Assembly: GCA_046483495.1 (NCBI GenBank)
Contig: JAWODC010000063.1
Span: 1-39,058 of the forward strand
DNA from: Desulfobacterales bacterium
GTDB taxonomy: Bacteria; Desulfobacterota; Desulfobacteria; Desulfobacterales; UBA5616
Length of the DNA stretch: 39,058 nucleotides
Direction: 5' to 3'
Shown: one piece after another, positions 6,939 to 31,892 of the stretch
How the letters are laid out: each line of letters starts with the position of its first letter
Numbering within the stretch: position 1 is the stretch's first letter
Notes under the pieces: model-generated
Seen by the model: the letters and a program-made list of their open reading frames with translations, nothing else
What the model was told of the DNA's origin: nothing
Database searches by the model: none
Translations under genes and position numbers: made by a program

Positions 6939-6956
6939 ATACGTAAAATCCCCTAA
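6939..6956 (-). promoter_or_regulatory. 18-bp regulon motif upstream of sor
   Basis: TTAGGGGATTTTACGTAT, overlapping the first base of TTTATT-N16-TAAAAT (6939-6912). Confidence 0.6.
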
Positions 6957-7007
6957 TCGGAATCGACCACACGATTAGCGAAACCTGCGGCAAAAGGGAT
7001 GCCGGTT

Positions 7008-7964
7008 TCAACAAAACAGGTTCACACTGTAAAACCCATCTTTGTCCAACCATTGCTTAATGAGCTTTACGCCTGCGTTTTCGGCGAGCTGCATGATTTC
7101 TGCAATGCTGTATTTGCAGGAGCGTTCATTGAAAATTCGCTCTTCCGCCCGCAGCGGCAGCTCCAGTCCGAAATCATCGATTGCGATCCACTGATCACAT
7201 TTGCTGATGATGTACGCGTTGATACTTCCGGTCACTCGATCATAAAATGAGCGGTGATAAAAATTGCACGGATTGAAATTTGCGCCGAACTCTCTGTTGA
7301 ACCTTTCCAGGCAATTGAGATGATATCGGCTGGTAATGCCTCGGGAGTCATTGTATGCGTTTTCAAGAATTCGGGAATTCTTGCGCAGGTCGACGCCGAT
7401 GAGCAGACCGTCTCCCGGAACCATGCGCCGCTTTACCTCTTTTAAAAATTCAGCCGCCTCTTTTTTGTCGAAATTTCCGATACTGCTGCCCAGCCAGAGA
7501 ATTAATTTCGGTCCGGATATGTCTTTCAGGTAGTCGAGGCTGTCGAAATAATCGCCGCAGCATGCTGTTATCACCAGGTCACGATACATGCGGCAAAGCT
7601 TTCGTGATGTTTCCATCAATATATCTTTGGAGATGTCGACGGGGTAGTACCGCAATTCCGACTGCCGCTTCAGCCAGCTATCGATAAGAATCCGGGTTTT
7701 TCCGGCATTTCCGCTCCCGAGCTCGACCACGGCACACTCGTTCTCGAATAAGGAGGCGATTTCTTCGGCGTATTCGTTGAGGATTTCAACTTCTTTGCGG
7801 GTCAAGTAATATTCAGGAAGGCTGCAGATCTGTTCATAGAGTCGCGAGCCTTGCTCGTCATAAATAAAAAAGGAGGGAATACATTTGGGATCGGACAAAA
7901 GACCGTTGCGAAGCTCGGATAGTTGATCGGTGACTGTGCCGTTAAAATCGATGAATCGGTACAT
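7008..7964 (-). CDS. egtD: EgtD-like SAM-dependent amino-acid N-methyltransferase (Methyltransf_33)
   Basis: YDEQGSRLYEQICSLPEYYLTRKE, VELGSG, LGSSIGN, AYND and ERSCKY motifs; start ATG 7964 with AGGAG RBS, or ATG 7985 overlapping the upstream stop (ATGA). Confidence 0.88.
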   Translation of the reverse strand: MYRFIDFNGTVTDQLSELRNGLLSDPKCIPSFFIYDEQGSRLYEQICSLPEYYLTRKEVEILNEYAEEIASLFENECAVVELGSGNAGKTRILIDSWLKRQSELRYYPVDISKDILMETSRKLCRMYRDLVITACCGDYFDSLDYLKDISGPKLILWLGSSIGNFDKKEAAEFLKEVKRRMVPGDGLLIGVDLRKNSRILENAYNDSRGITSRYHLNCLERFNREFGANFNPCNFYHRSFYDRVTGSINAYIISKCDQWIAIDDFGLELPLRAEERIFNERSCKYSIAEIMQLAENAGVKLIKQWLDKDGFYSVNLFC

Positions 7965-7981
7965 GTGAGATCTTGCTCCTG

Positions 7982-10195
7982 TCATGTCCCGCACCCCAGC
8001 GTGGGCACGATGTGTTGCGATAATTTTCTTCTTTTTCGTCTTTTTTTCACCACCTGGCACAGGAGTGCCTTATAGACCGGAAAACCCGAAACCGGATCGT
8101 ATTGATGGATATCGGTCAGTTCATTGACGTTGCAGCGCTGCCATTCGGGGGGTCCTAACGGGCCGCCTCCGCCGGTGCTCACATCGACATATCCTGGTGC
8201 TATTCGGTCCGAAACAATCGCCGCCACCGTGACCTGGCCCCGAAGCGTTTTGACAACAACGGTGTCACCCGATTGGATGCCCCGGCGGGACGCGTCGCCG
8301 ACATTGATCGTGACCGTCGGTTCCGGGCGTTCCTTTATCAATTCCGGTATGCTGCGGAAGCTGGTGCGAAAATCGGATTGGATCAGGGCTCCGGAGTTGA
8401 ACACCAGGGGGTATTCGCGGGCAAGTTCCGGATTGGACAGTGGACTTTCCCGGGGCTCTTCATATTTGGGCAGGGGGTCATACCCGTAGTGAGCCAGTAT
8501 CGAGGATGAAATTTCGAACTTTCCCGAGGGGGTGTTAAAACCGGGTTTTCCATCTTGGCGCAGCAGCCCTTTTTCCCATTTTCTGTAAACCATCGGCGTA
8601 TAGGGCATCTGAAGAATCCCGCCGTTGTTTGTCAAGTCATCCAAACGGAACGGAGAACCCTTTAATGCGCAGGTCAAAATTTCTTCATGAGACCGGGGGT
8701 AAAGATGACCGTAGCCCAGCCGGTCCGCTAATTCCGCAAGTATTTCATAATCTCCCTTTGATTCACCGCAGGGGTCGATAACCCGTTCCCTTACCCGCAA
8801 TGAGGAGCCGTAATAGCAATAGGAATCGATTTCGAACCCGGTGGCCGCCGGCAGGACCAGATCCGCATAGGCGGCATCCGACGTAAACTGCCGATCCACG
8901 CAGACTAGGAAATCCAGGGCGCCCAAGGTGCGTCGCCAGAGCACCGGGTCGGGCCATGCGGTGAGGATGGAGCCGCCCATGATCATAAGGAATCGAACAG
9001 GATACGGATCATTGTCAAGCACTGCCTTGGGCAGGGCCATGGCATGGGCTTCCGCGCGATAATGGTGATACAAGGGAAACTGTTTTCTTCCAAGGGCCTT
9101 TTCCGGAGCAGGATTGGGTATGTGGTCGCGGCGATTTACGGGAAAAATATTTTCCTTCATGGTAAAACACCGACCGCCGGGCACGTCCAACTGGCCGGCC
9201 AGCGCCCAGAATATCATTGCGGCACGGATATTCTGCACGCCGCTCGGCGTGTATTCCAGGCCGGTATACATGACCGGCGCCGCACCTTCCGCCGCAGCAA
9301 TCTCCCTGGACAGCCAAATAATCGTTTCTTTTGGAATACCTGTGATTTTTTCAGCGACATCCGGCGGAAATTTTTCAGCGTAATCGGCGAATTCTTCGAA
9401 TCCAAGGCACCAATCTTCTGCAAAACGACGATCGTATCGCTCTTCGTGAATCAAAACATGGCTCATCGCCAAAGCCAATGCTCCATCGGTTCCGGGACGG
9501 ATGGGAACCCAGTGCCCCCCGGGAAGTGAGGCTGCACTGGTTTTGCGCGGGTCGATGACGATGATTCGAGCGCCTTCTTCAGAAGCTTCCTTTATCCGAT
9601 CATAGGTGATCGGTGGACTGGAAGTCGCTGGATTTGTGCCCCACACTACAATCAGATCGGCATTTTCCAGATCGGAAAACATATCGATTTTCATGGCGCC
9701 CATTGTGACATGCGGCGCGATCATGGCGAACGAGACATAGCAATAGGCGCCGGCTCCAAGGGTGTTCGGGGAACCCAGGGGGAAGAATATGCCGGCGGCC
9801 GACGAGACGGCTACGTTCCTGGGTTGCATAATATCGCAGAAGGAACGTTCAAAACAGCCCCTTCCGGTGTATACGGCGAGACTCTCGGGGCCATGGGCGT
9901 CCTTTGTCGAGACAATTTTTTCGGCAAGGAGGTCGTATGCCTCATCCCAGGAGATTTTTTCAAACCGGTAAGTGCCCTTCGGACCGATGCGCTTTAGCGG
10001 ATGAAGCAGCCGTTCCGGAGAATAAACAATGTCCTTTGCCTGGCGCCCGATTCGACACACATACGGTAGGGGCGCGTCTTCATCCGGGCGGATCTCCGCT
10101 ATTCGCTCGTTCTCATCGAAACTTACGATCACGCCACAGCCGGGACTGGCAAAACAGCACCCGCAAACAGCCGATTTTTCTTTGCGCATACCCAC
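7982..10195 (-). CDS. molybdopterin/tungstopterin oxidoreductase of the acetylene hydratase-like class; probable metallopterin-dependent ergothioneine synthase (MES) module
   Basis: N-terminal 4Fe-4S motif CGCCFASPGC...C, ERLLHPLKR, Cys ligand region GAYCYVSF, WGTNP, IRPGTDGA, ADLVLPA, TPSGK and C-terminal pterin-binding domain; no Tat signal; abuts egtD; alternative start 10189. Confidence 0.85.
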   Translation of the reverse strand: MGMRKEKSAVCGCCFASPGCGVIVSFDENERIAEIRPDEDAPLPYVCRIGRQAKDIVYSPERLLHPLKRIGPKGTYRFEKISWDEAYDLLAEKIVSTKDAHGPESLAVYTGRGCFERSFCDIMQPRNVAVSSAAGIFFPLGSPNTLGAGAYCYVSFAMIAPHVTMGAMKIDMFSDLENADLIVVWGTNPATSSPPITYDRIKEASEEGARIIVIDPRKTSAASLPGGHWVPIRPGTDGALALAMSHVLIHEERYDRRFAEDWCLGFEEFADYAEKFPPDVAEKITGIPKETIIWLSREIAAAEGAAPVMYTGLEYTPSGVQNIRAAMIFWALAGQLDVPGGRCFTMKENIFPVNRRDHIPNPAPEKALGRKQFPLYHHYRAEAHAMALPKAVLDNDPYPVRFLMIMGGSILTAWPDPVLWRRTLGALDFLVCVDRQFTSDAAYADLVLPAATGFEIDSYCYYGSSLRVRERVIDPCGESKGDYEILAELADRLGYGHLYPRSHEEILTCALKGSPFRLDDLTNNGGILQMPYTPMVYRKWEKGLLRQDGKPGFNTPSGKFEISSSILAHYGYDPLPKYEEPRESPLSNPELAREYPLVFNSGALIQSDFRTSFRSIPELIKERPEPTVTINVGDASRRGIQSGDTVVVKTLRGQVTVAAIVSDRIAPGYVDVSTGGGGPLGPPEWQRCNVNELTDIHQYDPVSGFPVYKALLCQVVKKRRKRRKLSQHIVPTLGCGT

Positions 10196-10226
10196 TAATC
10201 CACCCCCGGGCGACCGGATCGGGGGC

Positions 10227-11495: not shown

Positions 11496-11602
11496 GTAGT
11501 TTAGAAATCATTGAGAGCAAGGTTTCGAGTACATTAATCCGGGCTAAAAGCATAAACTAAAAACAATTTTACCAAAAGCTACCATGAATGTTCGAAATGG
11601 CT

Positions 11603-11620
11603 ATGGGGTTTATCGTGTAT
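11603..11620. promoter_or_regulatory. 18-bp regulon motif upstream of the ndh-MES-egtD operon
   Basis: ATGGGGTTTATCGTGTAT; abuts minus-strand TAGCCA-N16-TAGCTT; 16/18 identical to the reverse complement of 23617-23634. Confidence 0.6.
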
Positions 11621-11761
11621 ATTCTGATGGATAAGCGCTTATTTGTAATTTCGGATGGATGACCACGGAAGGGGGGACAAAAAATCCGATGAGGACTTCA
11701 AACCATAGCGTTAATGGAAACATGGCCTGTGTCGGCTCTATGCATATGTTTTAATGCACAA

Positions 11762-11807
11762 ATACATTTTAAACCTGATTGAAAAAGAGGAGGGCTTTTC
11801 CTATCGT
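11762..11807 (+). promoter_or_regulatory. 18-bp motif plus sigma70 promoter upstream of the usp-ferredoxin operon
   Basis: ATACATTTTAAACCTGAT (11762-11779), then TTGAAA-N17-TATCGT (11779-11807). Confidence 0.58.
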
Positions 11808-11905
11808 ATCTCTGAAAAGCCGGCAGGAAAGCCTCAACCGGGTGACGATTCACCGCGACTATCGGGCGAAAACAGGGGTTGCAAGAAATGGCGGGGGGGG
11901 GTGAA

Positions 11906-12343
11906 ATGAAACTTGAAAAAATATTATGGCCAACGGATTTTTCTTCAAATGCGCAAGCGGCTCTTCCTTTGGTTCAATTGCTGAGTGAGCAATATGAGAC
12001 ACAAGTCCACGTTCTTTACGTTATTCCCGAATTGGCGGATCATGGCGCCTGGTATGGGGAATTCGACACCTCACATATTCAAAAGATTCATGAATGGGAA
12101 GAAAAAACGGCACAAAAACGGCTGGAAGAAATCTGTGAGGATTATTTGAAGGGCTGCCCGTTGTACGTCAAGCATATCGCCGCAGGGGATGCAGCCGAAG
12201 AAATTCTGAAAACCGCCGATAGGGAGAATGTCGACCTGGTCGTAATGGCGACGCGCGGAAGGAAAAACCGATTTTACTTCGGCAGCGTTGCCGAGGCGGT
12301 GCTTAAAAATTCGAAAAAACCCGTTTTGACCGTTCCCGTATAA
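11906..12343 (+). CDS. universal stress protein (UspA family)
   Basis: KILWPTDFS, DLVVMATRGR...FGSVAEAVL, PVLTV; start at MKLEK. Confidence 0.95.
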   Translation: MKLEKILWPTDFSSNAQAALPLVQLLSEQYETQVHVLYVIPELADHGAWYGEFDTSHIQKIHEWEEKTAQKRLEEICEDYLKGCPLYVKHIAAGDAAEEILKTADRENVDLVVMATRGRKNRFYFGSVAEAVLKNSKKPVLTVPV

Positions 12344-12383
12344 ATGGCGGACCAAATGGCACGAGACACCGAAAGGGACAAAA

Positions 12384-12581
12384 ATGGCAAAAAGCGTATA
12401 CATCGTGACCGAAGAATGTATCGGGTGTGAAAGCTGCGTCGAACTTTGCCCTGAAGTATTTGAATTCGACGCTGAAAATGAAAAGGCCGTCGTCATCATG
12501 CCCGAAAACGGAGATGAAGAATGCATTGAAGAAGCCATGGATTCCTGCCCATCCGAATGCATACATTGGACGGAAGAGTGA
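12384..12581 (+). CDS. single-cluster ferredoxin (4Fe-4S/3Fe-4S)
   Basis: CIGCESCVELCP and distal CP motif; acidic 65-aa protein. Confidence 0.93.
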   Translation: MAKSVYIVTEECIGCESCVELCPEVFEFDAENEKAVVIMPENGDEECIEEAMDSCPSECIHWTEE

Positions 12582-12637
12582 TCAGGCGGTGATCAAATCG
12601 TTAACAAGACACCCGTTTAAATTAAAAGGAGTAAATC

Positions 12638-12949
12638 ATGCCGATGCCGAAGGAATTATATCATCGTGACGTCCTGGAAAATATGGAGCAGAGCTGGCGG
12701 ACACAACTGGACAATATGACTCGGTCTCTGGACCTGATCGAGCAAAATCTCAATGAGGTGGCGGAAATGAGCGATGCGTGCACATCTGAATGGTGTACGG
12801 CGACCGAACATGTCTTGGATGATATGGCCAATGCCATCTTTACCATCAGTGAGCCCCGCTGGGCCCCCAAGGAAGACTCGCAGCACATTAAGCAGCTGAA
12901 GAGAAGAATGCATGACCTTTACACAAAATTTCAATCGCTGCAGTCCTGA
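12638..12949 (+). CDS. hypothetical helical protein
   Basis: AAAGGAG RBS, 103 aa, co-directional with usp and ferredoxin. Confidence 0.75.
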   Translation: MPMPKELYHRDVLENMEQSWRTQLDNMTRSLDLIEQNLNEVAEMSDACTSEWCTATEHVLDDMANAIFTISEPRWAPKEDSQHIKQLKRRMHDLYTKFQSLQS

Positions 12950-12975
12950 CACGCATGCCGGACGGTGGGAGAGTC

Positions 12976-14142
12976 TCAAAGGGGCAGGGCACCGTCGGTA
13001 CTTGCCCAAAACGCCCGAACGGTGGTGCCGTTGCCGATCTCTGAGATTACCTCGAACCTGCCGTCCGTCAATTCGACACGTTCCCGCATACCGTAAAGCC
13101 CCGTGCCTCTTTTGCATTCCGGGTTTGCTTGGGCTTCGAATGGGGACCTGAAGCCTTTTCCATTGTCCGTGATTTCAAGTTTCAAAAGTTTTTGGAAATC
13201 AGCGAATTGAATGTGTACGTGATCCGCACCGCTGTGTTTTGCGATATTGTTCAATGCCTCCTGAGCAACCCGAAAAATGGTGATCTTCAAGTGTTCCGCA
13301 ACGGATTCTTCGGTCAGGCCGATGCTCATCTCGATCTCGATGTTTTTGTTGATCTCGGAGAATTGCCGTGCAAGAGATTGGATGGATTTTACAATGCCGA
13401 GTCTGTCCAGGGCTTCGGGCCTCAGGTTTTTTGTAATGCGCTGAGTTTCTTCAATTGTATCCACCACAGTGGACAGTATCTTATCAAAGGAAAATCCGCT
13501 TCCGGCGGAATCCGGTACAAAAGCGGATCGGCTGGCTTCAAGCATCAGTTTGATAGCCGTGAGATTCGATCCGATGCTGTCGTGCAATTCCTTGGCAATA
13601 TATTTTCGTTCATCTTCCTGAGTCTGAAGGATTTTTACGGATAATCGGCGCAGCTCCCGCTCTGATTCTTTCAATCGTTTGATGTTTTGCCAGCGGTCTA
13701 TACTGTATCGGATGGAACGCTCCAGCAGGTTCGAATCCAACAGATCCTTTTCGATATAATCGTCAGCGCCCAACTTCATGGCGTCCATATCCAGTTCCCG
13801 GTTCCCATGCCCGGTCAACATGATGATCGGTGCGTTGAATTTTTTCTTTTTAAGTTTTTTCAAGACCGCCAAACCGTCCTTGATCCCAAGCCTGTAATCG
13901 AGTAGACATGCATCATAATGATTTTTTGGATCAATTTCGACGTCTTCGGCATCACGGACCCATTCGAGGTCATACCGGGTGTAATCGTTATCCGAAAGAG
14001 AATCCCTTATCAGGATATAATCGTCTTCATCATCTTCAATTAATAAGATATTTAGGCAATCCATTGTTTTCCAGCCTGACGGAAGGGCGCTTTCGCTCTT
14101 ATCTGATGCGCCCTCGAAGTGATTGATCTTTTTTATCTTCAT
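12976..14142 (-). CDS. hybrid receiver-histidine kinase (REC + HisKA_3 + HATPase, NarX/UhpB class), cytoplasmic
   Basis: LLIEDDEDD, LLDY, MLTG receiver; IAKELHDSIG H-box; QEALNNIAKHS, DNGKGF, GTGLYGMRER; ATG overlaps the upstream stop. Confidence 0.93.
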   Translation of the reverse strand: MKIKKINHFEGASDKSESALPSGWKTMDCLNILLIEDDEDDYILIRDSLSDNDYTRYDLEWVRDAEDVEIDPKNHYDACLLDYRLGIKDGLAVLKKLKKKKFNAPIIMLTGHGNRELDMDAMKLGADDYIEKDLLDSNLLERSIRYSIDRWQNIKRLKESERELRRLSVKILQTQEDERKYIAKELHDSIGSNLTAIKLMLEASRSAFVPDSAGSGFSFDKILSTVVDTIEETQRITKNLRPEALDRLGIVKSIQSLARQFSEINKNIEIEMSIGLTEESVAEHLKITIFRVAQEALNNIAKHSGADHVHIQFADFQKLLKLEITDNGKGFRSPFEAQANPECKRGTGLYGMRERVELTDGRFEVISEIGNGTTVRAFWASTDGALPL

Positions 14143-14543
14143 AGAATGATAAGTTTTAGGATTTGCACCAGTTTTTCGTAAGTATCCGGCTTGGTGAAAA
14201 ATGAATTGACACCATGAAGCCTGCAGAATTCAATATCGGATTCTTCACAAGACGTGGTCAATACCACAATATCGATCGCATTGAAGGCGGTATTCTTTTT
14301 TAATTTTTCAAGGACCTCGTGGCCGCTGATTTTGGGCATGTTGAGATCCAGAATGATCAATGCCGGCAACAAGGCCGGATCAGCCTTGTGGGTTTGATCC
14401 AGATAGCCCAACAATTCTTCGCCGTTTTTCACGAAGTTTACGCTATGAGATCGCGTTATCTCCTCGAAAGCATTTTGGATTAGAAACCGATCATCCGGGT
14501 CGTCTTCCGCGACCATTATTGAGGAAATGTGTTGACACCCCAT
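14139..14543 (-). CDS. single-domain response regulator (Rcp1/CheY-like)
   Basis: AEDDPDD, ILDLNMPKISG, VLTTS, FTKP. Confidence 0.92.
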   Translation of the reverse strand: MGCQHISSIMVAEDDPDDRFLIQNAFEEITRSHSVNFVKNGEELLGYLDQTHKADPALLPALIILDLNMPKISGHEVLEKLKKNTAFNAIDIVVLTTSCEESDIEFCRLHGVNSFFTKPDTYEKLVQILKLIIL

Positions 14544-14659
14544 AACAGACCTATTTATTTTTATAAAAGCTGGAATTTGAACCCGGCCTGAAATTCACAT
14601 GTGATGTTGTCTTGCCTTTCCGCGGGCATGATCGAATTCGCCGGCCACAAGTAAGAATT

Positions 14660-18095: not shown

Positions 18096-18353
18096 TTATG
18101 GACCGATGAACTCGGGTTCGACAGCCCCACACGTTTTCCAGGGAGCCTTTCGCTTTCGATCCGTCGGTGGCGGCTCTTTTAGGGGGGGCTGCCGATCGGG
18201 CTCATTTGGAGGTTCTTTTGCCGGCGGCTCGGAAGGTGGAGGAGGCGGTTGATGGTTTTCTCCGGGCTCTTGAATCGGAGGCTTTTTGGGTCCGTTGGGC
18301 GGTTCTTTGACCGGTGGTTTCCGTTTTTCTTTGGATATGCCGTTTTCAGACAT
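18096..18353 (-). CDS. small proline-rich repeat protein
   Basis: AAGGGAG RBS; four PPx(K/Q)EP units; stops 30 bp before the oxidoreductase alpha start. Confidence 0.55.
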   Translation of the reverse strand: MSENGISKEKRKPPVKEPPNGPKKPPIQEPGENHQPPPPPSEPPAKEPPNEPDRQPPLKEPPPTDRKRKAPWKTCGAVEPEFIGP

Positions 18354-18483
18354 CCTGATCTCCCTTTTTGCTCTTACTTAAAGGTCGAAAAACAACCCGG
18401 TTCAGGTCACCGATCGAGTTGCGCCCGGATTGGTGATGCCGGTGGGAAAAACACGTGCTATTGATCGAAAGAAAACTCCGGAC

Positions 18484-18561
18484 CCAGAAATGGCAGATTC
18501 ACTCCATTTCTTCGTTGGCCTGAACTTGAAGTGAATTTTCTCATTTCTGGATAAACACTAA
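18484..18561 (-). repeat. MITE/REP-like hairpin repeat, copy 1 (inner hairpin deleted)
   Basis: Imperfect palindrome CCAGAAATG..ATTCACT / AGTGAAT..CATTTCTGG; 28/32 match to 37211-37242 and 28/34 match to 24252-24285. Confidence 0.65.
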
Positions 18562-18579
18562 ATAGGGTTAAACGAGTAT
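18562..18579. promoter_or_regulatory. 18-bp regulon motif facing the Pro-rich gene and oxidoreductase operon
   Basis: ATAGGGTTAAACGAGTAT. Confidence 0.55.
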
Positions 18580-18694
18580 ATCCTTAACGCACCCATAGTA
18601 TATCATGACATTGGATAAGATACTGAGAGTCTTAAACACCACGCTGTCACCATACCTGCCTGCCGAATACGTCTACTGGATTCAGGGCGCCCGA

Positions 18695-18740
18695 ATACGG
18701 AATTCACCCTATTTATATAAGCCGGTAAAACCTGTAAAAG
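18695..18740 (+). promoter_or_regulatory. 18-bp motif plus putative promoter upstream of 18915
   Basis: ATACGGAATTCACCCTAT (18695-18712), then TTTATA-N17-TAAAAG. Confidence 0.6.
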
Positions 18741-18914
18741 AGGCATCGGAATCGATGTTGAGAAGGTTATGACGTGCAAACAAGATGTATTCTTTTCATT
18801 GTAGTCCTTTTCGAGCCGCCGTCAACGCGGCCGAGATCGTGAACCGCGTTCTTTGATGAAGATACAGCCGAAGACCGTGGTTTTTAACCCGTCAACCTCA
18901 CTTAGAAAGGGAAA

Positions 18915-19187
18915 ATGATCATGATGGAATCGAGTGAACTGTTGAATTTGCCCGGATTTTTTCTGTGTGAAAAAAGCCAATGTATTCTAAGGGTTGCGAT
19001 CTGCATTAAACGACAGATGATGAGCAACAGACGATTTAAGGACAGTGACGGCGCATTTGCCATCTGTTTTAACTGTGAACAGGGGGAAAGAAATATGCGT
19101 GTCTACAATGAAGCCGATATCCCTTTTGTCATGCCGAAATCTCAGGATTATACATGGACTGCTCACAAGCAGGGCGGAATGGCTTAG
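18915..19187 (+). CDS. small Cys-containing hypothetical protein
   Basis: AAAGGG RBS; C-x4-C-x6-C...CxxC; downstream of a motif-bearing promoter. Confidence 0.5.
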   Translation: MIMMESSELLNLPGFFLCEKSQCILRVAICIKRQMMSNRRFKDSDGAFAICFNCEQGERNMRVYNEADIPFVMPKSQDYTWTAHKQGGMA

Positions 19188-19243
19188 ATACTGCTGATTG
19201 AAAAAACGAATAACTACGTGAAAACCTTTATCAGGGAGGAAAT

Positions 19244-19546
19244 ATGCAAGTACAGGACTTTTGCAGCCAGATGGAAAAGCAGTTGGAGACCTTCCAGGAA
19301 TCCATTTCAAGAATTGAAAAGGCATTGGATGCCGGGGGAACCCAGGCTAAGCAGCAGATTCTACCGGTGGTGGGGGACATTAAAAACCTGTTGACCGAAT
19401 TATCGGTGCAAAAAGAGAGGCTCGAAAAAGAATGCCCCTCGGACTGGTCGGACGAAAAATCGAATATGGAGGACCTGGTTGGTCGCATCGGTTCGCATAT
19501 CGACCGGACGTGGACTGAAATATCTCAGGGAAACATCGGCGGTTGA
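19244..19546 (+). CDS. hypothetical helical protein (FC...ECP-W)
   Basis: GGGAGG RBS, 100 aa coiled-coil character, followed by a hairpin. Confidence 0.8.
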   Translation: MQVQDFCSQMEKQLETFQESISRIEKALDAGGTQAKQQILPVVGDIKNLLTELSVQKERLEKECPSDWSDEKSNMEDLVGRIGSHIDRTWTEISQGNIGG

Positions 19547-19652: not shown

Positions 19653-20420
19653 CTAATGCTTTTCCGGTTCGAGCTTATCGGGCGGGGTTAACGGTTCACC
19701 GGTGTCGAATGATTTTTCCACGTTAACCGGTTTGTCCTCACCCTCCGCCAGATATTCCGCATCGGTTTTCGCTGTCGGCTGCTGATCTTCGGTACGGTCC
19801 CGCCTTTCCCATGCCGTTCGGTCAATAGTTAGATTGTCCACCACTTCATTGAAATCCAGGATATCTTCGATAAGGTGGTGAAGCATATCACGGGTGCTTT
19901 CGGCAGGCACTACGCCGTTGAGAAATACGACCCCGTCGCGGCAGTCGATTGTCAGTTCCTCTGAATCGATGTCTTCAGCCCTGCTTATTTCATCCTGAAT
20001 GGCTTCTATCATTTCATCATCGGATAAAGCCTCATCATTCATTTTAACGGGATTTTCGCTTATTTTCTCCGTGGTAAAACCCTGCCTGCTTTTTGCGCAC
20101 CGAATGCAATGGCGGGCCCATGGCTTGGCATACAAACGTTTGACCGAAATCGGCTGCCGGCAAATTTCGCATTTTCCAAAAGTTTCCTTGTCGATTTTGC
20201 TCAAGGCATTGTCGATCTGCTGCAGCTCCGATTGTTGCCGGTCGGCCAGCGATTCCAGCGGACGGGAGGTGGAAAGATTGGCGGCGGTTTCTTCCGGTTC
20301 GATTTCCGACTGGTTGAGCCTGTTCCAGGATTTTTCAAAGCTGCGGCGGTTTGAAAGGATATCCTTTCGCCTTTTAAGAAGTTTTTCCCGAAGTTGGGAA
20401 TAAATCTCGGTATCAAGCAT
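19653..20420 (-). CDS. TraR/DksA C4 zinc-finger protein fused to a BON domain and acidic tail
   Basis: IDNALSKIDKETFGKCEICRQPI..KRL.AKPWARHCIRC, then LSDDEM...GVVFLNGVV...VVDNL. Confidence 0.85.
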   Translation of the reverse strand: MLDTEIYSQLREKLLKRRKDILSNRRSFEKSWNRLNQSEIEPEETAANLSTSRPLESLADRQQSELQQIDNALSKIDKETFGKCEICRQPISVKRLYAKPWARHCIRCAKSRQGFTTEKISENPVKMNDEALSDDEMIEAIQDEISRAEDIDSEELTIDCRDGVVFLNGVVPAESTRDMLHHLIEDILDFNEVVDNLTIDRTAWERRDRTEDQQPTAKTDAEYLAEGEDKPVNVEKSFDTGEPLTPPDKLEPEKH

Positions 20421-20560: not shown

Positions 20561-21124
20561 TCAGGATGCACCTTTACAGGATTTTACGGTTCGGGCAACT
20601 CTGTCAAAGACATCCGTCAAGCGTAAAATGCCGATAGGATCGTTCTGAGAATCCATTACCAGAAGCGAGTGGAGCTGATAAGAAATCATTTGATGCAGGG
20701 CCTCCGACACTTTTCTATCCGCATTTACATATTCTTCTCGAGAAGGGGTGTGCATAATGTCTTTCGCCTTAACGTGAAAGGCTTTTTCACACAGCCGATC
20801 AAGCGGTTCCCGCCAAAGTCCGAATTTTTCGATCTGATGTTTAATGAAGTCGGGTGTAAAACCGGTCGGCAGATATCTCTGAATATCCCCCATCCGGGCA
20901 TAACCATCTTCCAGGCTCATGATAACGTCGAATCGGCTCAGTCTCCCCGTGACATGAAGGTCGTCGTTCATTACCAAAACCAGGGCATGTGAATTTTGAT
21001 CCTGCGGTTCGGTGAGCCGAGTTTCTTCAAGTGCGATAATCGCCTCGAACAGTGTGGCCTGCTCGGAAACAGCGGCACAACGGGTCAGCGGGACCATCAT
21101 TTCCTCGACTGTCAATGTATTCAT
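20561..21124 (-). CDS. CBS-domain protein
   Basis: TVEEMMVPL...ATLFEAI, KAKDIM, ALHQM...IGILRLTDVF; GGGAG RBS. Confidence 0.87.
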   Translation of the reverse strand: MNTLTVEEMMVPLTRCAAVSEQATLFEAIIALEETRLTEPQDQNSHALVLVMNDDLHVTGRLSRFDVIMSLEDGYARMGDIQRYLPTGFTPDFIKHQIEKFGLWREPLDRLCEKAFHVKAKDIMHTPSREEYVNADRKVSEALHQMISYQLHSLLVMDSQNDPIGILRLTDVFDRVARTVKSCKGAS

Positions 21125-21179: not shown

Positions 21180-21225
21180 AAATTAGCCTACATGATGTTC
21201 GCATAAAATAGGCGAAATCCTGTAT
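21180..21225 (-). promoter_or_regulatory. 18-bp motif plus putative promoter upstream of the CBS/DksA-BON genes
   Basis: Plus-strand ATAGGCGAAATCCTGTAT (21208-21225) abuts minus-strand TTTTAT-N17-TAATTT. Confidence 0.6.
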
Positions 21226-21522
21226 TTTATAAAAGCAAACACGCCTTCTGTCGGCTTTGAGATATTTCCCACATAACACTTTTGAACAGGTTGAATGCAA
21301 ATCAATATATTGAAGGCCCGATGGCGAAGGTACCATATCAAGAGGAAAAACGTTCTCCGGATGATTTGAAACGACGGCATTTACCCGCTTATTTTCCAGG
21401 AAAATTCCGGTTTATTATGGTCGGTATCCTGATAGACAACGCCTCTTTTATCATTTAGATGTAATCGTAAACCAAACTTCGAAATATCACCCGCTTTATC
21501 CCACTTGCTTAAAGGATCTGTC

Positions 21523-23547: not shown

Positions 23548-23616
23548 AAATGCGGGGTGGTTTCCATTACCGTTTTGATTCGAGCCGCTTGGAATTACAT
23601 GCAACAAAACCGGCAT

Positions 23617-23662
23617 ATAAGCGATAAACCCCATTTACGGCATGCCTCTTATATAGTGAAAT
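23617..23662 (+). promoter_or_regulatory. 18-bp motif plus putative promoter upstream of the CBS gene
   Basis: ATAAGCGATAAACCCCAT (23617-23634), then TTTACG-N17-TGAAAT; TATAGT also present at 23652-23657. Confidence 0.55.
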
Positions 23663-23745: not shown

Positions 23746-24156
23746 ATGAAGGTTAATGAAATCATGACAGGCGACATTGCCACAGTTACTACGAACGATT
23801 CGATCAAAACAGCGGCTGAGAAAATGAAAGAACTGGATGTCGGCGATATCCCGGTTGTTTTGCATGGCGATACCGTTGGTATGATCACCGACAGGGACGT
23901 CACTGTGAGAGCCGTTGCAAAAGGTCTTGATCCGGAAAAAACGCATGTCATAGACGTCATGACAAAGGATGTAATCGCATGCAATGAGCAGGATGATGTC
24001 GGAACGGCCGTGGATTTGATGAGACGGCACAAGATAAGGCGGCTGTTGGTAATGAGTGAAGGAAAGAAGTTGTCCGGTGTCATTTCTTTGAAGGATGTCG
24101 CGTTGAATTTGGACAAAGATGCCGTTACGCAAATCCTCAGGGATGTTTCAACCTGA
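23746..24156 (+). CDS. CBS-pair protein (Hrp1/YhcV-like)
   Basis: MKVNEIMT, AAEKMKELDVGDIPV, GMITDRD, IRRLLV, GVISLKD; AGGAGG RBS. Confidence 0.93.
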   Translation: MKVNEIMTGDIATVTTNDSIKTAAEKMKELDVGDIPVVLHGDTVGMITDRDVTVRAVAKGLDPEKTHVIDVMTKDVIACNEQDDVGTAVDLMRRHKIRRLLVMSEGKKLSGVISLKDVALNLDKDAVTQILRDVST

Positions 24157-24311: not shown

Positions 24312-24596
24312 TTGGACGAAAAGGAAAAATTCAGGGTGGAAGTCGAGGCCAAGCTCGAGCGGATGGGCTTATCACTGACCGATTTGACCACAAAATGGGA
24401 GACCAGAAAAGAAACCAGGCCGGATTTGCGGCTGCAGGATCTTGCCGAGAAACAGCAGCAGGCGCAAAATATGTTCGAAGAGTTGAAAGGAGCTCCCGAT
24501 GAGCATGAATTCAGAAAAAAGCAAACGGATTTGAAACGGATGATGAGCGATATCGATGAAGATATCCGTCAGGCCTGGGCCTATATCATGTTTTAA
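24312..24596 (+). CDS. hypothetical coiled-coil protein
   Basis: AGGAGG RBS with TTG start; 94 aa, charged and helical; followed by a terminator. Confidence 0.75.
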   Translation: MDEKEKFRVEVEAKLERMGLSLTDLTTKWETRKETRPDLRLQDLAEKQQQAQNMFEELKGAPDEHEFRKKQTDLKRMMSDIDEDIRQAWAYIMF

Positions 24597-24983: not shown

Positions 24984-25003
24984 CGCTGATACAACCGTCG
25001 CAA

Positions 25004-25049
25004 ATGGGGGAAATACCGTATTTACGAACGGTCAACGATGAATTATAAA
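25004..25049 (+). promoter_or_regulatory. 18-bp motif plus sigma70 promoter upstream of 25177
   Basis: ATGGGGGAAATACCGTAT (25004-25021), then TTTACG-N17-TATAAA. Confidence 0.62.
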
Positions 25050-25176
25050 ACTCAATTATCATACTTCGGCTAAACGCCTTTGAAGCATCTGAATTCGGTG
25101 CTGTTCGCACCGACGGCAAAAGGCTTGGCCCCGGAGAGGTGAGCAAGAAAAACTTACAGAAGAAAGGGTACGTGTA

Positions 25177-25392
25177 ATGACGACACCTCAGACCACACCA
25201 CAGCATTGCCCAGGATTCGAAAAATTTCGAGAACTGGAATCGTTTACCTGCAGTTGCCCCAATTGTTCGGAGAAAATGGAAATATTTTCCGATGAATTCG
25301 ACAAGCCCCGCAAATGTCCGAAATGCGGCACTCAGATCGATTTCACGCAATGTACACTCGAGGGTTCCGGAAAGGCGACATCATCCAGGTGA
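25177..25392 (+). CDS. small zinc-ribbon protein
   Basis: HCPG...CPNC..EIFSDE..CPKC; AAAGGG RBS. Confidence 0.75.
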   Translation: MTTPQTTPQHCPGFEKFRELESFTCSCPNCSEKMEIFSDEFDKPRKCPKCGTQIDFTQCTLEGSGKATSSR

Positions 25393-25627: not shown

Positions 25628-25733
25628 AATTTTTGATCGTGGTTGAGATTGCTGCAATTTCATTTTATCTACCTTTTTAAACAATCAATCCGGCAAGACT
25701 CCAATGCGTATCGCCTTCTGCAGTCTTATTGAA

Positions 25734-27047: not shown

Positions 27048-27126
27048 GGGTGTCTTTCCTCTTCCATTTCTGAATTCACTTGCGACGGTCCCGTTTGCGG
27101 CGGGCCGTCCCGGAATGCGTCCGGGT

Positions 27127-29412
27127 TCAACCATAAAGGGCCTTTTTATCCGATCGGGAATCGAGTGGAATCAGTGCATGCCGGCCATTGCCGTAATCGG
27201 TAAGTTTTGGACGATATCCCGGCACATTGATTTCGATGATCGGAGGCGGTTTATGCCACTTTGCGTGAGTCTCCAGATAAACGGTGTCCTTTTTCCGGTA
27301 TATGCGGACACTGATGGTTCCCCAAAATACGGGGGCCGGACCAAATACGATCTCATCTTCCGATGCAATCCATTCGGGAAAAATACCCGAGCCCAGCACG
27401 AGCCGCTCTTTTTCTTCCCGGACAAACAAATGATGAATCATCAGCACCCATTCGGCTGCCGCCCATCCATGCTGGCCGTCACCCATGCATCCGCCGCCGG
27501 TAAACGGATGAATGGCTTCGGGCCACTGGCCTGTCGACGACGCCATCCTCGCGGTGTTTTCAACGAGCATTTTATACCTGCCGTCTCCCATTCGCAACAA
27601 CGATTGGGCGATGCACAGGGAAAGGTAGGGATTCATGCCTGAATGAATCATATCCTGGAAAAAGCACCCCGATTGGATACAGTTTTCCATCAGGTAATCG
27701 ACGGTTTCCTTGATGAGGTGGTGTCCGGGCGGGACGATTTGTAATGGATAATCAGCCACCAGGCTTCCAATGGCGCCGGAATCCATTCTTCGATAGGGTG
27801 AAGCCGGTATGCCGCCGCTTGACAGTTTGGAGGAGGCTCGGGCGATGCTGCTGAAAATGGCTTTTTCAAAATCCTCGGCTTCGGACGAACATGATTTTTG
27901 CATTTTAACGGATCCGAATATGCCTGCCAACCGAGCGGCGGCTTTCAGACCCGCCAGTCCCCAGAAGTCATCCCAATAATAAAAATCATTTGGACCGAAG
28001 TGTTCGGCACTGAATCCGGCGGGAAGAAGTCCGCCGTGATTTCCTTGATTTTTGGGCGTACGTTTGTGTTTGATCCACATGGCACCCCTTCGGAGCGATT
28101 TCAACCAGTTTCTCTCGAAGGCGTCTTTGCCGCCCAAATGATAGAAACGATCGAATAACCATAGCACCTGACCGTTCGAATCCCATTCACCTTCCTGGGA
28201 TTGAAAGTACCCCGAATGTCTTTGCCGTTCAAAAAAGAGGCTCAAAGGACGAGTGCATCGATCAGCCAATCCCATTGTTAAAAGGGCGTGCATGATCATG
28301 CAGGCATCCCTGAACCAGAATCGCCGGTATGTATAAGGGCCTGGAAAAACATCGTCTGCCGACAGCAATATAAGGGTTTTTTTGGCGATGTGGTACAGCG
28401 ATTGGACTGTTTTGTCCGGAATAGTAAGTCCGGGTGTATGGGCAAGTGCCGATTCCCAGGTCTGCCGCCTTCTCGGCTTTCTTTCGAGGTTCCGTGAGAG
28501 TTCATCTTGAAGAGGGACGGCGAATTCTATTTCTCTGGCCCGATTCTCTTCCAGTGAAAAAACGGCGGCGGATGTAGCCATTCCAACTTCACAGGAAACC
28601 TTGTGTTCCGATTCGTCTTTTTCCATTAAATGCAGAACGTCACCTTTGCGATAATTTGAAAACAGGACTTTTTCAGGCTCTTCTTCCATATCAATCAGGG
28701 TTTGAGAATTTATTACCCATGTGCGCATCTTTTTTTTATATTCAATATGTTCGATGAATTGAATTCCTTCGGGATTGTAAGGCCTTAGCGACACTGCCAT
28801 GCGACTGTTTCGGCGGGGAGAAAATCCCGTTGCGTTGAAAATGAGAAACGGCCGTTCATCTCGAATTTCCATGTGGACACGCGTGGTCAACTCCAGGCCG
28901 TCCTTTACACAATAGGTGCGCACAGTCAGGTCCGGCTTTATGAATTTCTGGTCCACATCCCGGATTTTGGACGGCAGCAAAGCAATGCCGTTTTCGTCGA
29001 ACATCCAAAAGTCGATGGACCAACCATCGAATAGCGGGGTGATGAGCCCGCGGGGATCCACAATGGGATATATAGGAAGATGAGGAAGGCCCACCGCTGT
29101 CCAATTACGGTTTGTAAGGTTTACGTGGGTTACGGAAAAAGCCCTCGGTATAAAGGAGGGGTCCTGGGGGTTGAACTGCTTTTCCACCCAGAACGGCCAA
29201 ACCCAATCCAAGTTATTTTGAATGGTCCTTGTGTTGATGAGCCCCCGGGCGTGAAACGCGATTCCGGCCCGCAAAAGTTCGATAGGGGTTTGAATTGCAG
29301 AGGGCTGCGAGAAACGCCCAAGCCTGGCCCACAATGAAAATGGATCGATTAGACCGTAAGAACGGGTAATGTGCCGTATGACGAATTTCCAGGGAAGCAG
29401 CCGTTTCAGCAA
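27127..29412 (-). CDS. large protein with C-terminal six-hairpin (alpha/alpha)6 glycosidase-like domain
   Basis: PGPYTYRRFWFRDA, EWDSNGQ, GLLPAG.SAEH, YYWDDFW, GQWPEA..P...MGD..HGWAAAE; GGAGAGG RBS with TTG start. Confidence 0.78.
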   Translation of the reverse strand: MLKRLLPWKFVIRHITRSYGLIDPFSLWARLGRFSQPSAIQTPIELLRAGIAFHARGLINTRTIQNNLDWVWPFWVEKQFNPQDPSFIPRAFSVTHVNLTNRNWTAVGLPHLPIYPIVDPRGLITPLFDGWSIDFWMFDENGIALLPSKIRDVDQKFIKPDLTVRTYCVKDGLELTTRVHMEIRDERPFLIFNATGFSPRRNSRMAVSLRPYNPEGIQFIEHIEYKKKMRTWVINSQTLIDMEEEPEKVLFSNYRKGDVLHLMEKDESEHKVSCEVGMATSAAVFSLEENRAREIEFAVPLQDELSRNLERKPRRRQTWESALAHTPGLTIPDKTVQSLYHIAKKTLILLSADDVFPGPYTYRRFWFRDACMIMHALLTMGLADRCTRPLSLFFERQRHSGYFQSQEGEWDSNGQVLWLFDRFYHLGGKDAFERNWLKSLRRGAMWIKHKRTPKNQGNHGGLLPAGFSAEHFGPNDFYYWDDFWGLAGLKAAARLAGIFGSVKMQKSCSSEAEDFEKAIFSSIARASSKLSSGGIPASPYRRMDSGAIGSLVADYPLQIVPPGHHLIKETVDYLMENCIQSGCFFQDMIHSGMNPYLSLCIAQSLLRMGDGRYKMLVENTARMASSTGQWPEAIHPFTGGGCMGDGQHGWAAAEWVLMIHHLFVREEKERLVLGSGIFPEWIASEDEIVFGPAPVFWGTISVRIYRKKDTVYLETHAKWHKPPPIIEINVPGYRPKLTDYGNGRHALIPLDSRSDKKALYG

Positions 29413-29840
29413 AACGCAAATCCTCTCCTTTTTTTTTAAATAAATCCGCTTAAGTTTTATTCAATTATCAGATTTCATGCAGAAATTTCATTCTTCTCTA
29501 TACAATACCAGGTGAAACGAATAAATACATGCATTCATTCATATGGTTTTGTACTGCCTCGTATTTTTGGCAACCTCCGGCAGTTGCGATAAATAACATC
29601 GGTTATGAAAATAAATGAATACCCGACTTATTATACGTGCTTTGAGGTGATATAATAAAAGCTCATTGTGATTAGGCGTAGTCCTGCAGCTGGATTTGTC
29701 GGCTTAATGAAAGCACGAAATGCGATGCCGTAAAGCTCGAAACCATTTTCGGAACCAGCGTTAACGGCCGCATTCGACTCGCCGGGAGTCATTGAGACCC
29801 GGCAATATAACCTGGAAGCAGAATTTATTGGAGGGCGGAC

Positions 29841-30098
29841 ATGTATCAAAAGAGCGAATTATGTGAAAAAATCAGAAGCATTTATCCTGAAATCGGCGAG
29901 TGCGGAATCGATATTGACGTCGCTTATGACGAGGACATGAAAACGTGGGTGGTATATCTGAATAAGGGAGACACGTCCTTAAAGACGTATCTCGAACCAA
30001 AAGATGCCGATCTGTGTATGGAAGGAAAACAGTGTGTGAGTCTCGGCATCGAGATCAATCAATTAAAAGACAGCATCGACAGAATGCCGCCCAGATGA
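29841..30098 (+). CDS. small hypothetical protein with four Cys
   Basis: GGAGGG RBS; upstream TATAAT at 29651; 85 aa. Confidence 0.78.
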   Translation: MYQKSELCEKIRSIYPEIGECGIDIDVAYDEDMKTWVVYLNKGDTSLKTYLEPKDADLCMEGKQCVSLGIEINQLKDSIDRMPPR

Positions 30099-30132
30099 AT
30101 TCAGGTGGATTCAGATGAAATACAGATGAATT
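30092..30132. repeat. short tandem repeat, 4 x ~10 bp (CAGATGAATT)
   Basis: CAGATGAATT-CAGGTGGATT-CAGATGAAATA-CAGATGAATT. Confidence 0.7.
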
Positions 30133-30183
30133 CCTGCGGCTTAAATTTCCCGGCCGCCGTTACCTGTGACGGCAACCGCCCGA

Positions 30184-31317
30184 TTATTGTTCATCGAGTT
30201 CAATTTTAAGGGATAAAAACTCCAGCAAATCTTTTAGGGTGATGACCCCCAGCAGGCGGTTGCCGTCGGCGACCAGAAGGCGGCTCTGCCGGGACTTGCT
30301 CATCATTGCCAGGGCTTTCATGGCATCTTCAGACGCACCGACCGTATTTTCTTCGTCCGGCCCCCGGACGATGTCAACCACATGGATATCCGGCCATTTT
30401 TCTTTTGGAATTTCCTTGACCTGCTTGGTGGTGACATATCCGATCAGGTTCCGGTCCGAATCGATCACCGGAAACATCTTGAAGTGAAATTTATAAATAT
30501 AGTCGTTTACGAGCGTGCTGATCGTTGCATCAGACGGCACGGTAATCGGATCGGTTTTCATAAACCGGCTGACCTGTTCGCCTTCCAGCGCCCTCCGGGT
30601 GAGAAGCTGCTGATAGGAGGATTTGGCCGCGGAATACAGGAAAAATCCGATCAGTCCCCACCACATGCCGCCGATTAGATTACCCATGAGTATGCTCATC
30701 AATCCCAACACGATCAGCATAATGCCGAACCCCGATCCGATGGAAGCCGATACCCGGGTTGCCCAACGAATGTTGTCCTTGAATTTCCATAATGCGGACC
30801 TCAAAATTCTGCCGCCGTCCAGTGGAAAGGCCGGCACCAGATTGAATGCGGCCAGTACGCCGTTGATTAAAGCAAGATATCCGACAACGGCGCTTATGGG
30901 GCGGGGGAGCCAGCCGGTTTGGCCGGACAGGTAAATTGCAAGAAAAACCAGAGCAATGCCGATACTTGCCAGCGGACCGGCGACCGCCATCAGGAATTCG
31001 GTTTTCGGCGATGTGGGTTCATCTCCCATCTCTGCAACACCGCCGAAAATAAACAACGTAATTCCTTTCATCGGCAGTCCGTACCGTCGGGCCACAATCG
31101 AATGGGAAAATTCATGAACGATAATGGATAAGAACAAACCTAAAGCACCGATAATCCCCATCAGCCAATAAGTGGATGTGGAAAGATTTTTATAGTGAAA
31201 CGGGAAAAAGCCTGTGGAAAGAGACCATGTGATCAAGATGGCAATAAAAATCCAACTAAGATCAATTTTTACTTCGAATCCCAATAAACTGAAAAGCCGA
31301 ACACTGTTGCCGAACAT
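30184..31317 (-). CDS. site-2 protease (M50) with C-terminal CBS pair
   Basis: HEFSH, LFIFGGVA, AGP, FNLVPAFPLDGGRIL, then two CBS domains; GGAGG RBS. Confidence 0.95.
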   Translation of the reverse strand: MFGNSVRLFSLLGFEVKIDLSWIFIAILITWSLSTGFFPFHYKNLSTSTYWLMGIIGALGLFLSIIVHEFSHSIVARRYGLPMKGITLFIFGGVAEMGDEPTSPKTEFLMAVAGPLASIGIALVFLAIYLSGQTGWLPRPISAVVGYLALINGVLAAFNLVPAFPLDGGRILRSALWKFKDNIRWATRVSASIGSGFGIMLIVLGLMSILMGNLIGGMWWGLIGFFLYSAAKSSYQQLLTRRALEGEQVSRFMKTDPITVPSDATISTLVNDYIYKFHFKMFPVIDSDRNLIGYVTTKQVKEIPKEKWPDIHVVDIVRGPDEENTVGASEDAMKALAMMSKSRQSRLLVADGNRLLGVITLKDLLEFLSLKIELDEQ

Positions 31318-31330
31318 TGACTCCTCCCTT

Positions 31331-31705
31331 TCAGGTGGATGTATCGATGAAGGTCCCGACCAGGTTAATTATCTCATTGATAGTTATCGTATTTTTGGAA
31401 ATAAAATAATCCGCACCCGCGTCAATGGCGGCTTTTGTGTATTCCGCGGAATCATAATTGGTAATCACGACAACGGGAAGGATGCTGTTTTTTTCCTTTA
31501 TACTGCGTGTCAACACCAGTCCGTCCGAACCTGGCAGATTGATATCCATGAAAATCAGATTTGGCGATTCGGATTCGATTTCAGTCATGACATACTCACC
31601 ATTGGGAAACTCCCGGATCACCGCGGAAGGATATGCCGAAACGATGATTTCCTTCAGCGTTTCGGAAAAGAGACGGTTGTCATCGACAATGAATATGGTG
31701 AGCAT
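31331..31705 (-). CDS. single-domain response regulator
   Basis: IFIVDDN, IFMDINLPGSDG, VITNYD, YFISK; alternative start GTG 31741. Confidence 0.88.
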   Translation of the reverse strand: MLTIFIVDDNRLFSETLKEIIVSAYPSAVIREFPNGEYVMTEIESESPNLIFMDINLPGSDGLVLTRSIKEKNSILPVVVITNYDSAEYTKAAIDAGADYFISKNTITINEIINLVGTFIDTST

Positions 31706-31846
31706 ACAATTTATCGCTTGAATTTTTATGGATTTTTCCACATAATAGGAATAAATCCAGAAAACACATGCATATAGTCTCCAAAGTTGTTTGGAATCTG
31801 GATGATTTCGGAAAACATTTTAGCATGTCTACACTTATAATATCTT

Positions 31847-31892
31847 TTTTTATTTCCTTTTTTTGATTTCGTATATAGGGTAAATTATGTAT
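31847..31892 (-). promoter_or_regulatory. 18-bp motif plus putative promoter between the divergent response regulators
   Basis: Plus-strand ATAGGGTAAATTATGTAT (31875-31892) abuts minus-strand TATACG-N17-TAAAAA. Confidence 0.58.

Follow-up and report, generated by a model that had tools for sequence, protein, structure and literature searches.

The box of EsrB, a NarL-family regulator of Edwardsiella, is given as ATCAGGTgattACCCGAT in the relevant part of a review (PMC6592360). For its Salmonella counterpart SsrB, sections of another paper describe tolerance of degenerate half-sites that depend on orientation, and no strict distance between these sites and the transcription start (PMC2837388). 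DosR/DevR, a NarL-family activator of Mycobacterium tuberculosis, recognizes the half-site GGGACT, and a strong and a weak box at −42.5 and −63.5 are described for one promoter in the portion concerned with it (PMC3177182). What is known of how the Desulfobacterota that dominate sulfate reduction in sediments cope with oxygen, salt and starvation comes mostly from Desulfovibrio. In Desulfovibrio vulgaris, DVU3305, the response regulator of a three-component system, has been tied to general stress and Usp genes, according to passages of its description (PMC3333781). Here we analysed a 39,058-nucleotide (nt) stretch of a Desulfobacterales bacterium (hereafter the window; contig C77 of a 4.19 Mb genome in 94 contigs, 96.7% complete), in which an earlier note had picked out by eye nine intergenic copies of an 18-bp motif, ATRGGG-N8-GTAT. 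We found that the motif belongs to a polar 20-bp element whose consensus, read towards the gene, is AATACAGGATTTACCCYATT. It is likely the site through which an EsrB/SsrB-like NarL clade, including the regulator encoded at 32063-32719 (hereafter 32063), activates sigma-70 promoters of general stress and dormancy genes.

Each of the nine 18-mers was found once at its reported position, five on the forward strand and four on the reverse strand. When up to one mismatch was allowed, ATRGGG-N8-GTAT matched the window 13 times, compared with 2.99 ± 1.60 times in shuffled sequence, and none of 100 shuffles reached 13. The intergenic DNA of the window contained five exact matches (0.017 expected) and eight matches at one mismatch (0.51 expected), numbers that were not reached in any of 1000 shuffles. 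A similar enrichment was observed in the intergenic DNA of the whole genome, with 36 exact matches against 1.65 after shuffling (maximum of 5 in 20 shuffles). There, the excess was seen only with the eight-nucleotide spacer, as N6, N7, N9 and N10 yielded 0, 1, 2 and 3 matches, respectively. The comparison with shuffled controls and the whole genome that the earlier note had suggested therefore favours the motif.

A matrix iterated under the rule of one orientation per place converged to 113 intergenic sites genome-wide, with 9 in the window, 15 on contig C70, 11 on C57 and 18 on C11. An unconstrained iteration drifted to a looser, symmetric and AT-rich motif with 257 matches, and was discarded. 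At 15 bits, the matrix derived from the nine window sites alone detected 70 further intergenic sites outside the window, whereas column-shuffled matrices gave 4.2; conversely, a matrix built without the window assigned 18 to 25.5 bits to eight of the nine window sites, and 11.3 bits to the site at 6939. The sites are clustered in islands, since 58 of the 113 have a neighbour within 5 kb, compared with 29 for random positions (maximum of 47 in 1000). The regulon of about 25 kb envisaged in the earlier note is thus too narrow, as only 9 of the 113 sites lie inside the window. Among the additional copies it had listed, the one at 29525 was recovered and that at 19214 is weak (7.4 bits) and lies immediately 5′ of a ribosome-binding site, with no space for a promoter; those at 6324 and 21416 scored below zero and are unsupported as full sites.

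The usual working direction of the element is the reverse complement of the form in which it was first written. In regions that serve a single gene, the CCCYATT end faces the gene in 33 of 40 unambiguous sites (p = 4 × 10−5), and in divergent regions it faces the nearer gene in 54 of 72; a minority of sites, such as those at 6939 and 25004, are used in the opposite orientation. A TANNNT hexamer, which the matrix does not include, is most frequent at +22 beyond the 20-mer (32 of 113 sites, background 1.3), and is present at +21 to +23 in 51 of the 113 sites, compared with 11 on the opposite side. When the same matrix was applied to other genomes, the TANNNT peak was again at +22 (39 of 110 sites). 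This peak places the element at about −53 to −34, with its centre near −43.5, and the last TT of the site would be the start of a mostly weak −35 hexamer. A weak second copy was observed 22 nt upstream, where ATAC occurs in 13 of 113 sites, against 0 to 3 at 51 other offsets, and the same T/A/C peak at the −22 offset appears among the sites from other genomes. The two halves of the element differ from each other, and some sites have two AATAC-type or two AATAG-type halves. The fixed position at the upstream edge of the −35 hexamer agrees with the class II geometry proposed in the earlier note. Its statement that eight of nine copies show promoter spacing holds as a fixed spacing genome-wide; within the window, the strict TANNNT follows four of the nine and a hexamer starting with TA at +21 or +22 follows seven, so that eight is a generous count. 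We have little doubt that the element is an activator site at sigma-70-type promoters.

A pyrimidine-rich variant of the box was observed in genome G038 (loci L159, L164, L169, L174, L179 and L184), and also in G014, G047 and G086. In the six G038 loci read, the site runs directly into GAC, completing TTGAC. Since the flanks of these loci are unrelated and this −35 is present, we consider these matches a promoter variant; their interpretation as a repeat was rejected.

Pieces of the window are present at ≥99% identity in salt-lake metatranscriptomes of three studies. These RNA data are assembled contigs that carry no strand, level or true transcript start, their ends come from among the pieces listed (32 of 73 and 28 of 33), and stretches without contig cover, including the receiver gene 31331-31705, are uninformative. 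At three promoters, contig ends fall 13-17 nt beyond the predicted starts, a weak hint at the proposed register: for the site at 18694, with a predicted start at 18747, the ends are 18760, 18762 and 18763 in three studies; for that at 18561, the predicted start is 18527 and the end 18510; and for that at 25003, the predicted start is 25056 and the end 25072, with a further end at 25084. An ordinary promoter taken for comparison, TTGACA-17-TACGGT, with a predicted start at 14653, showed contig ends at 14636 and 14634 (17-19 nt).

To describe the genes under the sites, Pfam was run on 100 first genes outside the window, 73 of which gave a match. Stress-type proteins included catalase, Fe/Mn superoxide dismutase, rubrerythrin, an encapsulin ferritin-like protein, LigD, an OtsA-type GT20 enzyme, Usp, two BON and two Hsp20 proteins, dodecin, PEBP, DegP, FtsH and an HPF-cold-shock fusion. 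DUF2383, DUF378, PRC and CBS proteins and cytochrome c oxidase subunit II were also found, together with carbon enzymes (GAPDH, glucokinase, transketolase, PDH E1, PFOR, malic enzyme and amylase), and no secretion-system gene was present among these 100. On C57, two Ku genes lie downstream of a small site-led open reading frame (ORF). The 3665 genes of the genome were called with a hexamer-based caller, so that gene starts are approximate; 191 of them are under a site, including 7 of 23 CBS genes (p = 1 × 10−4) and 3 of 7 BON genes (p = 0.004). Among 61 targets in other genomes, GT20, DksA-BON, CBS, PRC, DUF2383, GlgE, desulfoferrodoxin and receivers appeared again. The six sigma region-4 matches of the genome correspond to RpoD, an RpoH-like factor, two ECF factors and two LuxR helix-turn-helix (HTH) proteins; neither RpoS nor SigB was among these six matches, obtained with that query in a genome that is 96.7% complete. 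Oxygen or redox state, or general stress, is the signal that we somewhat favour.

Two other loci were observed in the course of this survey. At C11:92642-105018 (G000, L103), a gene with five BON domains, served by a site of 27.7 bits, starts a gene run with PEP (phosphoenolpyruvate) synthase, an N-ATPase operon that has a Na+/H+ antiporter inside, and a LuxR regulator from outside the clade. At L189:17069-17482 and L194:12931-13350 (G162 and G190), genes for RsbW-like and STAS (anti-anti-sigma-like) proteins are under sites, hinting at a link to partner-switching modules.

The regulator 32063 has an N-terminal receiver (PF00072, E = 1.5e-29) and a C-terminal LuxR/GerE HTH (PF00196, E = 2.1e-18), and the genome contains ten LuxR-HTH genes. 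In a tree of 78 NarL proteins (computed in quick and FastTree versions), 32063 belongs to a clade of 39 members (Shimodaira-Hasegawa-like approximate likelihood ratio test, SH-aLRT, 99) that includes the paralogues C11:109283 and C88:12065; its named relatives are from Desulfobacteraceae, Desulfobacterales and other Desulfobacterota. Its recognition helix is the commonest of the clade, that of C11:109283 is KTVEKHRSN, and that of C88:12065 has drifted to STVDKHRTN. With this genome left out, 18 of 36 clade genes but 0 of 35 other NarL genes had a site of at least 14 bits in the 450 nt upstream, and in a second gene set the numbers were 12 of 18 and 0 of 12. In these sets, the presence of the site next to a NarL gene is specific to the clade. 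The best PDB match of the 32063 HTH was EsrB (7vim, E = 3.9e-16), with SsrB (2jpc) in fifth place. As to the DNA, the EsrB box agrees with the 18-nt core at 11 positions, and at 8 of 9 in the promoter-proximal half; this 6.2-bit match was equalled by 17 of 20000 shuffles and by 231 of 20000 palindromic shuffles. With a 7-4-7 box of ATCAGGT-type halves, the proximal half scored 9.0 of 12.1 bits. Taken from sequence, there is a strong likelihood that the element is bound by this NarL clade.

The neighbourhood of the clade genes, surveyed with 58 of 98 ORFs annotated, is also conserved. Of the 30 loci examined, 14 have a lone receiver in the divergent position, so that 31331-31705 represents a conserved divergent partner, and the gene downstream of the regulator is a HisKA_3 kinase in 15 of 21. 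The kinases adjoining clade regulators carry PAS, GAF, Cache, MASE3 or REC domains. In the present genome there are 13 HisKA_3 genes, including 12976-14064, which is preceded by a second lone receiver (14139-14516). The site is often only 44-70 nt upstream of the start codon of the regulator, and one RNA contig of 32063 (with an adapter end, from one run) starts at 31903, 10 nt past the site at 31874-31893. For these reasons, the site may also cover the start of the regulator's own transcript. The link that the earlier note had drawn between this copy and 32063 holds insofar as it is in the shared divergent region; it faces, however, the lone receiver gene. For the role of activator given there to it, 32063 is a good candidate, in view of the clade footprint, the EsrB-like helix and box, and the co-occurrence described below; the two paralogues of the same clade in this genome could, however, share that role.

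We then considered the distribution of motif and clade. Within the order, 250 genomes were compared, and an excess of at least 8 motif matches over the reversed pattern was detected in 30 of 109 genomes with the clade and 5 of 141 without it (a clade match was defined by E of at most 1e-62, at a gap in the scores, with 11 candidates scored per genome). Four of the five motif-rich exceptions, plus G018, carry a second NarL clade with the same recognition helix. In G047 and G086 the main clade was not found; both carry a NarL clade ending in GPELW, with that helix. Of 194 genomes from other orders, ten had at least nine matches and twice the control. In all 22 sampled genomes of the four families to which these ten belong, the clade was present in all 10 motif-rich genomes and in 2 of the 12 motif-poor ones (p = 1 × 10−4), and one of four large, motif-poor genomes from other families also had it. 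The sites of G162 and G190 are concentrated around the clade gene. A real, genome-wide and phylum-spanning candidate regulon is well supported by these results, and so is the family of its regulator.

Several observations weigh against activation of stress promoters by this clade. The strict TANNNT at +21 to +23 is missing downstream of 62 of the 113 sites, and the RNA contigs of two promoters end 46-82 nt off the predicted start. The site upstream of the regulator faces away from it in 19 of 20 cases, so that another factor could be acting there on the receiver gene. With −2.8 of 13.3 bits, the distal half-site is no match to the EsrB box. Little motif excess was found in 79 of the 109 clade-bearing genomes, and the within-family sign test in the order gave 13 of 22 (p = 0.52). 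Matches are few in the two genomes with the closest 32063 orthologues (7 vs 2 and 7 vs 3) and in a genome of the same genus (5 vs 4), and G135 has 10 vs 1 matches with no clade member found; one locus of this genome (L202, G135:C205) has five sites within 6 kb. Finally, only 2 of 18 Usp genes are under a site (p = 0.24), and since central carbon enzymes make up many of the targets and no Pfam match was obtained for 27 of the 100 first genes, the word stress is an interpretation of the gene list.

Among clade members, 32063 is slightly favoured as the main one acting in this genome. It is possible, if doubtful, that the main activator is instead one of the paralogues C11:109283 and C88:12065, or that two clade members act as a heterodimer, in which case the polarity of the site would reflect two different subunits; RcsB, which works with partner proteins, is a precedent. 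All three clade members of this genome are divergent from a site-bearing promoter within a site cluster, the two half-sites are unlike, with resemblance to EsrB in the promoter-proximal one alone, and, as mentioned, the genomes with the closest orthologues of 32063 have few sites. However, 32063 is the member with the commonest helix while C88:12065 has drifted, several motif-rich genomes (G407, G446 and G314) show a single clade match, and the sites with two halves of the same type fit a tolerant homodimer.

It is unlikely that an unrelated transcription factor binds the site, with the receiver/NarL locus as no more than a conserved target of that factor. The direction of the site beside the regulator, the weak within-family signal and G135 would fit this explanation, but an EsrB-like helix and an EsrB-like half-site agree independently, and motif-rich genomes without the clade carry a NarL clade with the same helix. 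A Crp/Fnr protein was considered for this role and rejected, as the sole Crp/Fnr gene above the cut-off has none of the 113 sites. Less probable still is a protein that acts mainly as a repressor sitting on the −35 region. The site does touch the −35 hexamer, which in G038 is a strong TTGAC, and at the promoter of the regulator itself it probably overlaps the start; nevertheless, activation requires just such a single, fixed register and orientation with respect to a −35 that is mostly weak, and repressor operators are not usually so fixed in position. Highly improbable is that CCCYATT is the −10 of a sigma-32-type factor, in whose promoters CCCCAT follows a CTTGAA-type −35 at a distance of about 13-14 nt. 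An RpoH-like gene is present in the genome, and two Hsp20 genes, FtsH and DegP are among the targets. Nevertheless, the columns in which such a −35 would fall (positions −7 to −2) show no conserved hexamer and no more than 0.04 bits, TANNNT forms a peak of its own 22 nt downstream, the RNA contig ends agree with the start predicted from that peak, and groES-groEL in the window has no site.

Returning to activation by the NarL clade, we propose that a HisKA_3 kinase (often with PAS or GAF domains, or REC-led as 12976-14064) would phosphorylate the regulator, and that the phosphorylated dimer would bind the strong box centred near −43.5, beside the −35. A second dimer may bind the weak box near −65.5 cooperatively, two turns upstream, as in DosR, and the bound regulator would recruit the sigma-70 polymerase as a class II activator. 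Induction of the lone receiver could provide a phosphate drain or sink, and the site in the divergent region probably dampens the promoter of the regulator.

Table 1. Sites (20-mers) and signalling genes in the window; hexamers are given with their offset from the site.
Coordinates	Strand	Feature	Genes faced or adjoining	Hexamer	Score (bits)
6938..6957	-	Site, weakest of nine, minority orientation	Superoxide reductase-like gene 6418-6813	TAAAAT, +21	11.3
11602..11621	-	Site	NDH-2-like, molybdopterin oxidoreductase and EgtD-like genes (11495 down to 7008)	TAGCTT, +21	20.4
11761..11780	+	Site	Usp gene (ends 12343), small ferredoxin-like ORF, 12638-12949	TATCGT, +22 (11802-11807)	18.8
12976..14064	-	REC-HisKA_3-HATPase kinase without sensor domain; candidate phosphodonor			
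18561..18580	-	Site	Pro-rich ORF 18096-18353 and 2-oxoacid:ferredoxin oxidoreductase genes	AAAATT (poor −10)	
18694..18713	+	Site	18915-19187 and 19244-19546	TAAAAG, +22	
21207..21226	-	Site	CBS gene 20561-21124 and DksA/TraR-BON gene 19653-20420	TAATTT, +22	25.5
23616..23635	+	Site	CBS gene 23746-24156 and 24312-24596	TGAAAT, +22 (poor −10)	19.2
25003..25022	+	Site, minority orientation	71-aa Cys-rich ORF 25177-25392	TATAAA, +22	
29524..29543	-	Site, weaker, near-symmetric	761-aa orphan gene and GT4 glycosyltransferase gene	TATAGA, +22	13.1
31331..31705	-	Single-domain response regulator; DD, D, T and K residues intact	Followed by M50 peptidase-CBS gene		
31874..31893	-	Site in divergent region	Lone receiver gene	TAAAAA, +22	
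32063..32719	+	NarL/FixJ-family response regulator, REC + LuxR HTH, recognition helix KTVEKHRAN; candidate activator			

The window as a whole encodes an RND pump, a superoxide reductase-like protein, EgtD, a molybdopterin oxidoreductase, an NDH-2-like enzyme, Usp, the REC-HisKA_3 kinase, two lone receivers, a 2-oxoacid:ferredoxin oxidoreductase, a DksA-BON protein, three CBS proteins, glycosyltransferases, the NarL-type regulator and groESL, and an Rfam search of it gave no match. Some of the genes listed in Table 1 deserve a description. The ORF at 25177-25392 (+) has zinc-ribbon-like CxxC pairs, is absent from the gene calls and is covered by RNA contigs in two runs; it gave no NCBIfam match at 1e-15. 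The Pro-rich ORF at 18096-18353 (−), 85 aa long and located 5′ of the 2-oxoacid:ferredoxin oxidoreductase genes, is covered by the RNA contig 18219-18510, and the ferredoxin-like ORF directly 3′ of the Usp gene (12384-12581, +) has 65 aa and a CxxCxxC...CP pattern. The 761-aa protein (27127-29412, −), whose gene overlaps that of the GT4 enzyme, had no match in Pfam or NCBIfam; the clade regulator in L023 and L024 is adjoined by orphan ORFs of 761 and 691 aa, which may or may not be related to it. The product of 19653-20420 (−) fuses a DksA/TraR zinc finger to BON, and the same fusion is under a site in L190 and L205.

More broadly, many Desulfobacterota may run a general stress and dormancy programme without RpoS, sigma-B or EcfG, by means of this NarL regulator and its polar box, a proposal that we regard as evenly balanced. 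A pool of HisKA_3 kinases would feed the regulator, a lone receiver under its own control would buffer it, and it would act at a handful to more than 100 sigma-70 promoters. If so, strict anaerobes would possess an additional general-stress architecture that evolved independently, and a family of stress regulators would seem to stand behind SsrB and EsrB, which control virulence. No prior description of such a regulon in this phylum was found in listings and the opening lines of abstracts from the open literature; an earlier computational prediction, for instance in subscription journals, RegPrecise or supplements, is possible. The analysis supplies the motif together with its promoter register and about 100 target promoters in one genome, as well as a named clade of regulators, which occurs outside the order in no fewer than four more families. 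The motif also places many unannotated small genes in one programme, and the wide differences in regulon size among genomes offer a model for regulon growth through islands.

Finally, we compared this system with those already known. Some databases label relatives as NreC, the staphylococcal regulator. The NreC palindrome is TAGGG-N4-CCCTA, and its half-site CCCTA is identical to the proximal CCCTA here; since the palindrome was not enriched (2 intergenic matches against 3.6 after shuffling), this interpretation was rejected. Catalase, LigD/Ku, trehalose synthesis, OsmY/BON and the ferritin-like DUF2383 and DUF378 are typical output of sigma-B, RpoS and EcfG-PhyR, and the general-stress network of alphaproteobacteria has many kinases and lone receivers. 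The target families found here correspond to that output; unlike in those systems, it appears to run via an activator at sigma-70-type promoters. DVU3305, compared by its description only, is likewise a stress-linked response regulator of a sulfate reducer, but the passages available describe few operons as targets and a Lon-domain partner (PMC3333781).

EsrB and SsrB share with 32063 the NarL family and the KTVE-HR-N recognition helix (alignments to 7vim and 2jpc), and the site here is, like the EsrB box with its 11 of 18 matching positions, 18 bp long, as far as the review describes it (PMC6592360). In contrast to SsrB, the distance to the promoter is fixed here, and in contrast to both proteins, the distal half is ATACAGG, the targets are stress and storage genes rather than secretion systems, and the putative partner kinases are HisKA_3. 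Moreover, 32063 scored 195.4 bits against PRK15369, which we take to be the SsrB model, below its cut-off of 242. DosR targets, which are induced by hypoxia or NO through haem-GAF kinases, are clustered and include Usp, Hsp20 and CBS proteins; clustering and these protein families were also observed here. As with DosR/DevR, a NarL-family protein is the candidate activator and tandem strong and weak boxes are in helical phase (about −43.5 and −65.5). The differences are that the matrix contains no GGGACT half-sites, that the strong box is the promoter-proximal one, and that about twice as many promoters are involved, including those of non-homologous end joining, trehalose, and peroxide and superoxide defence genes. 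The system is therefore a member of neither group: it resembles DosR in its architecture, and EsrB and SsrB in the way it reads DNA.

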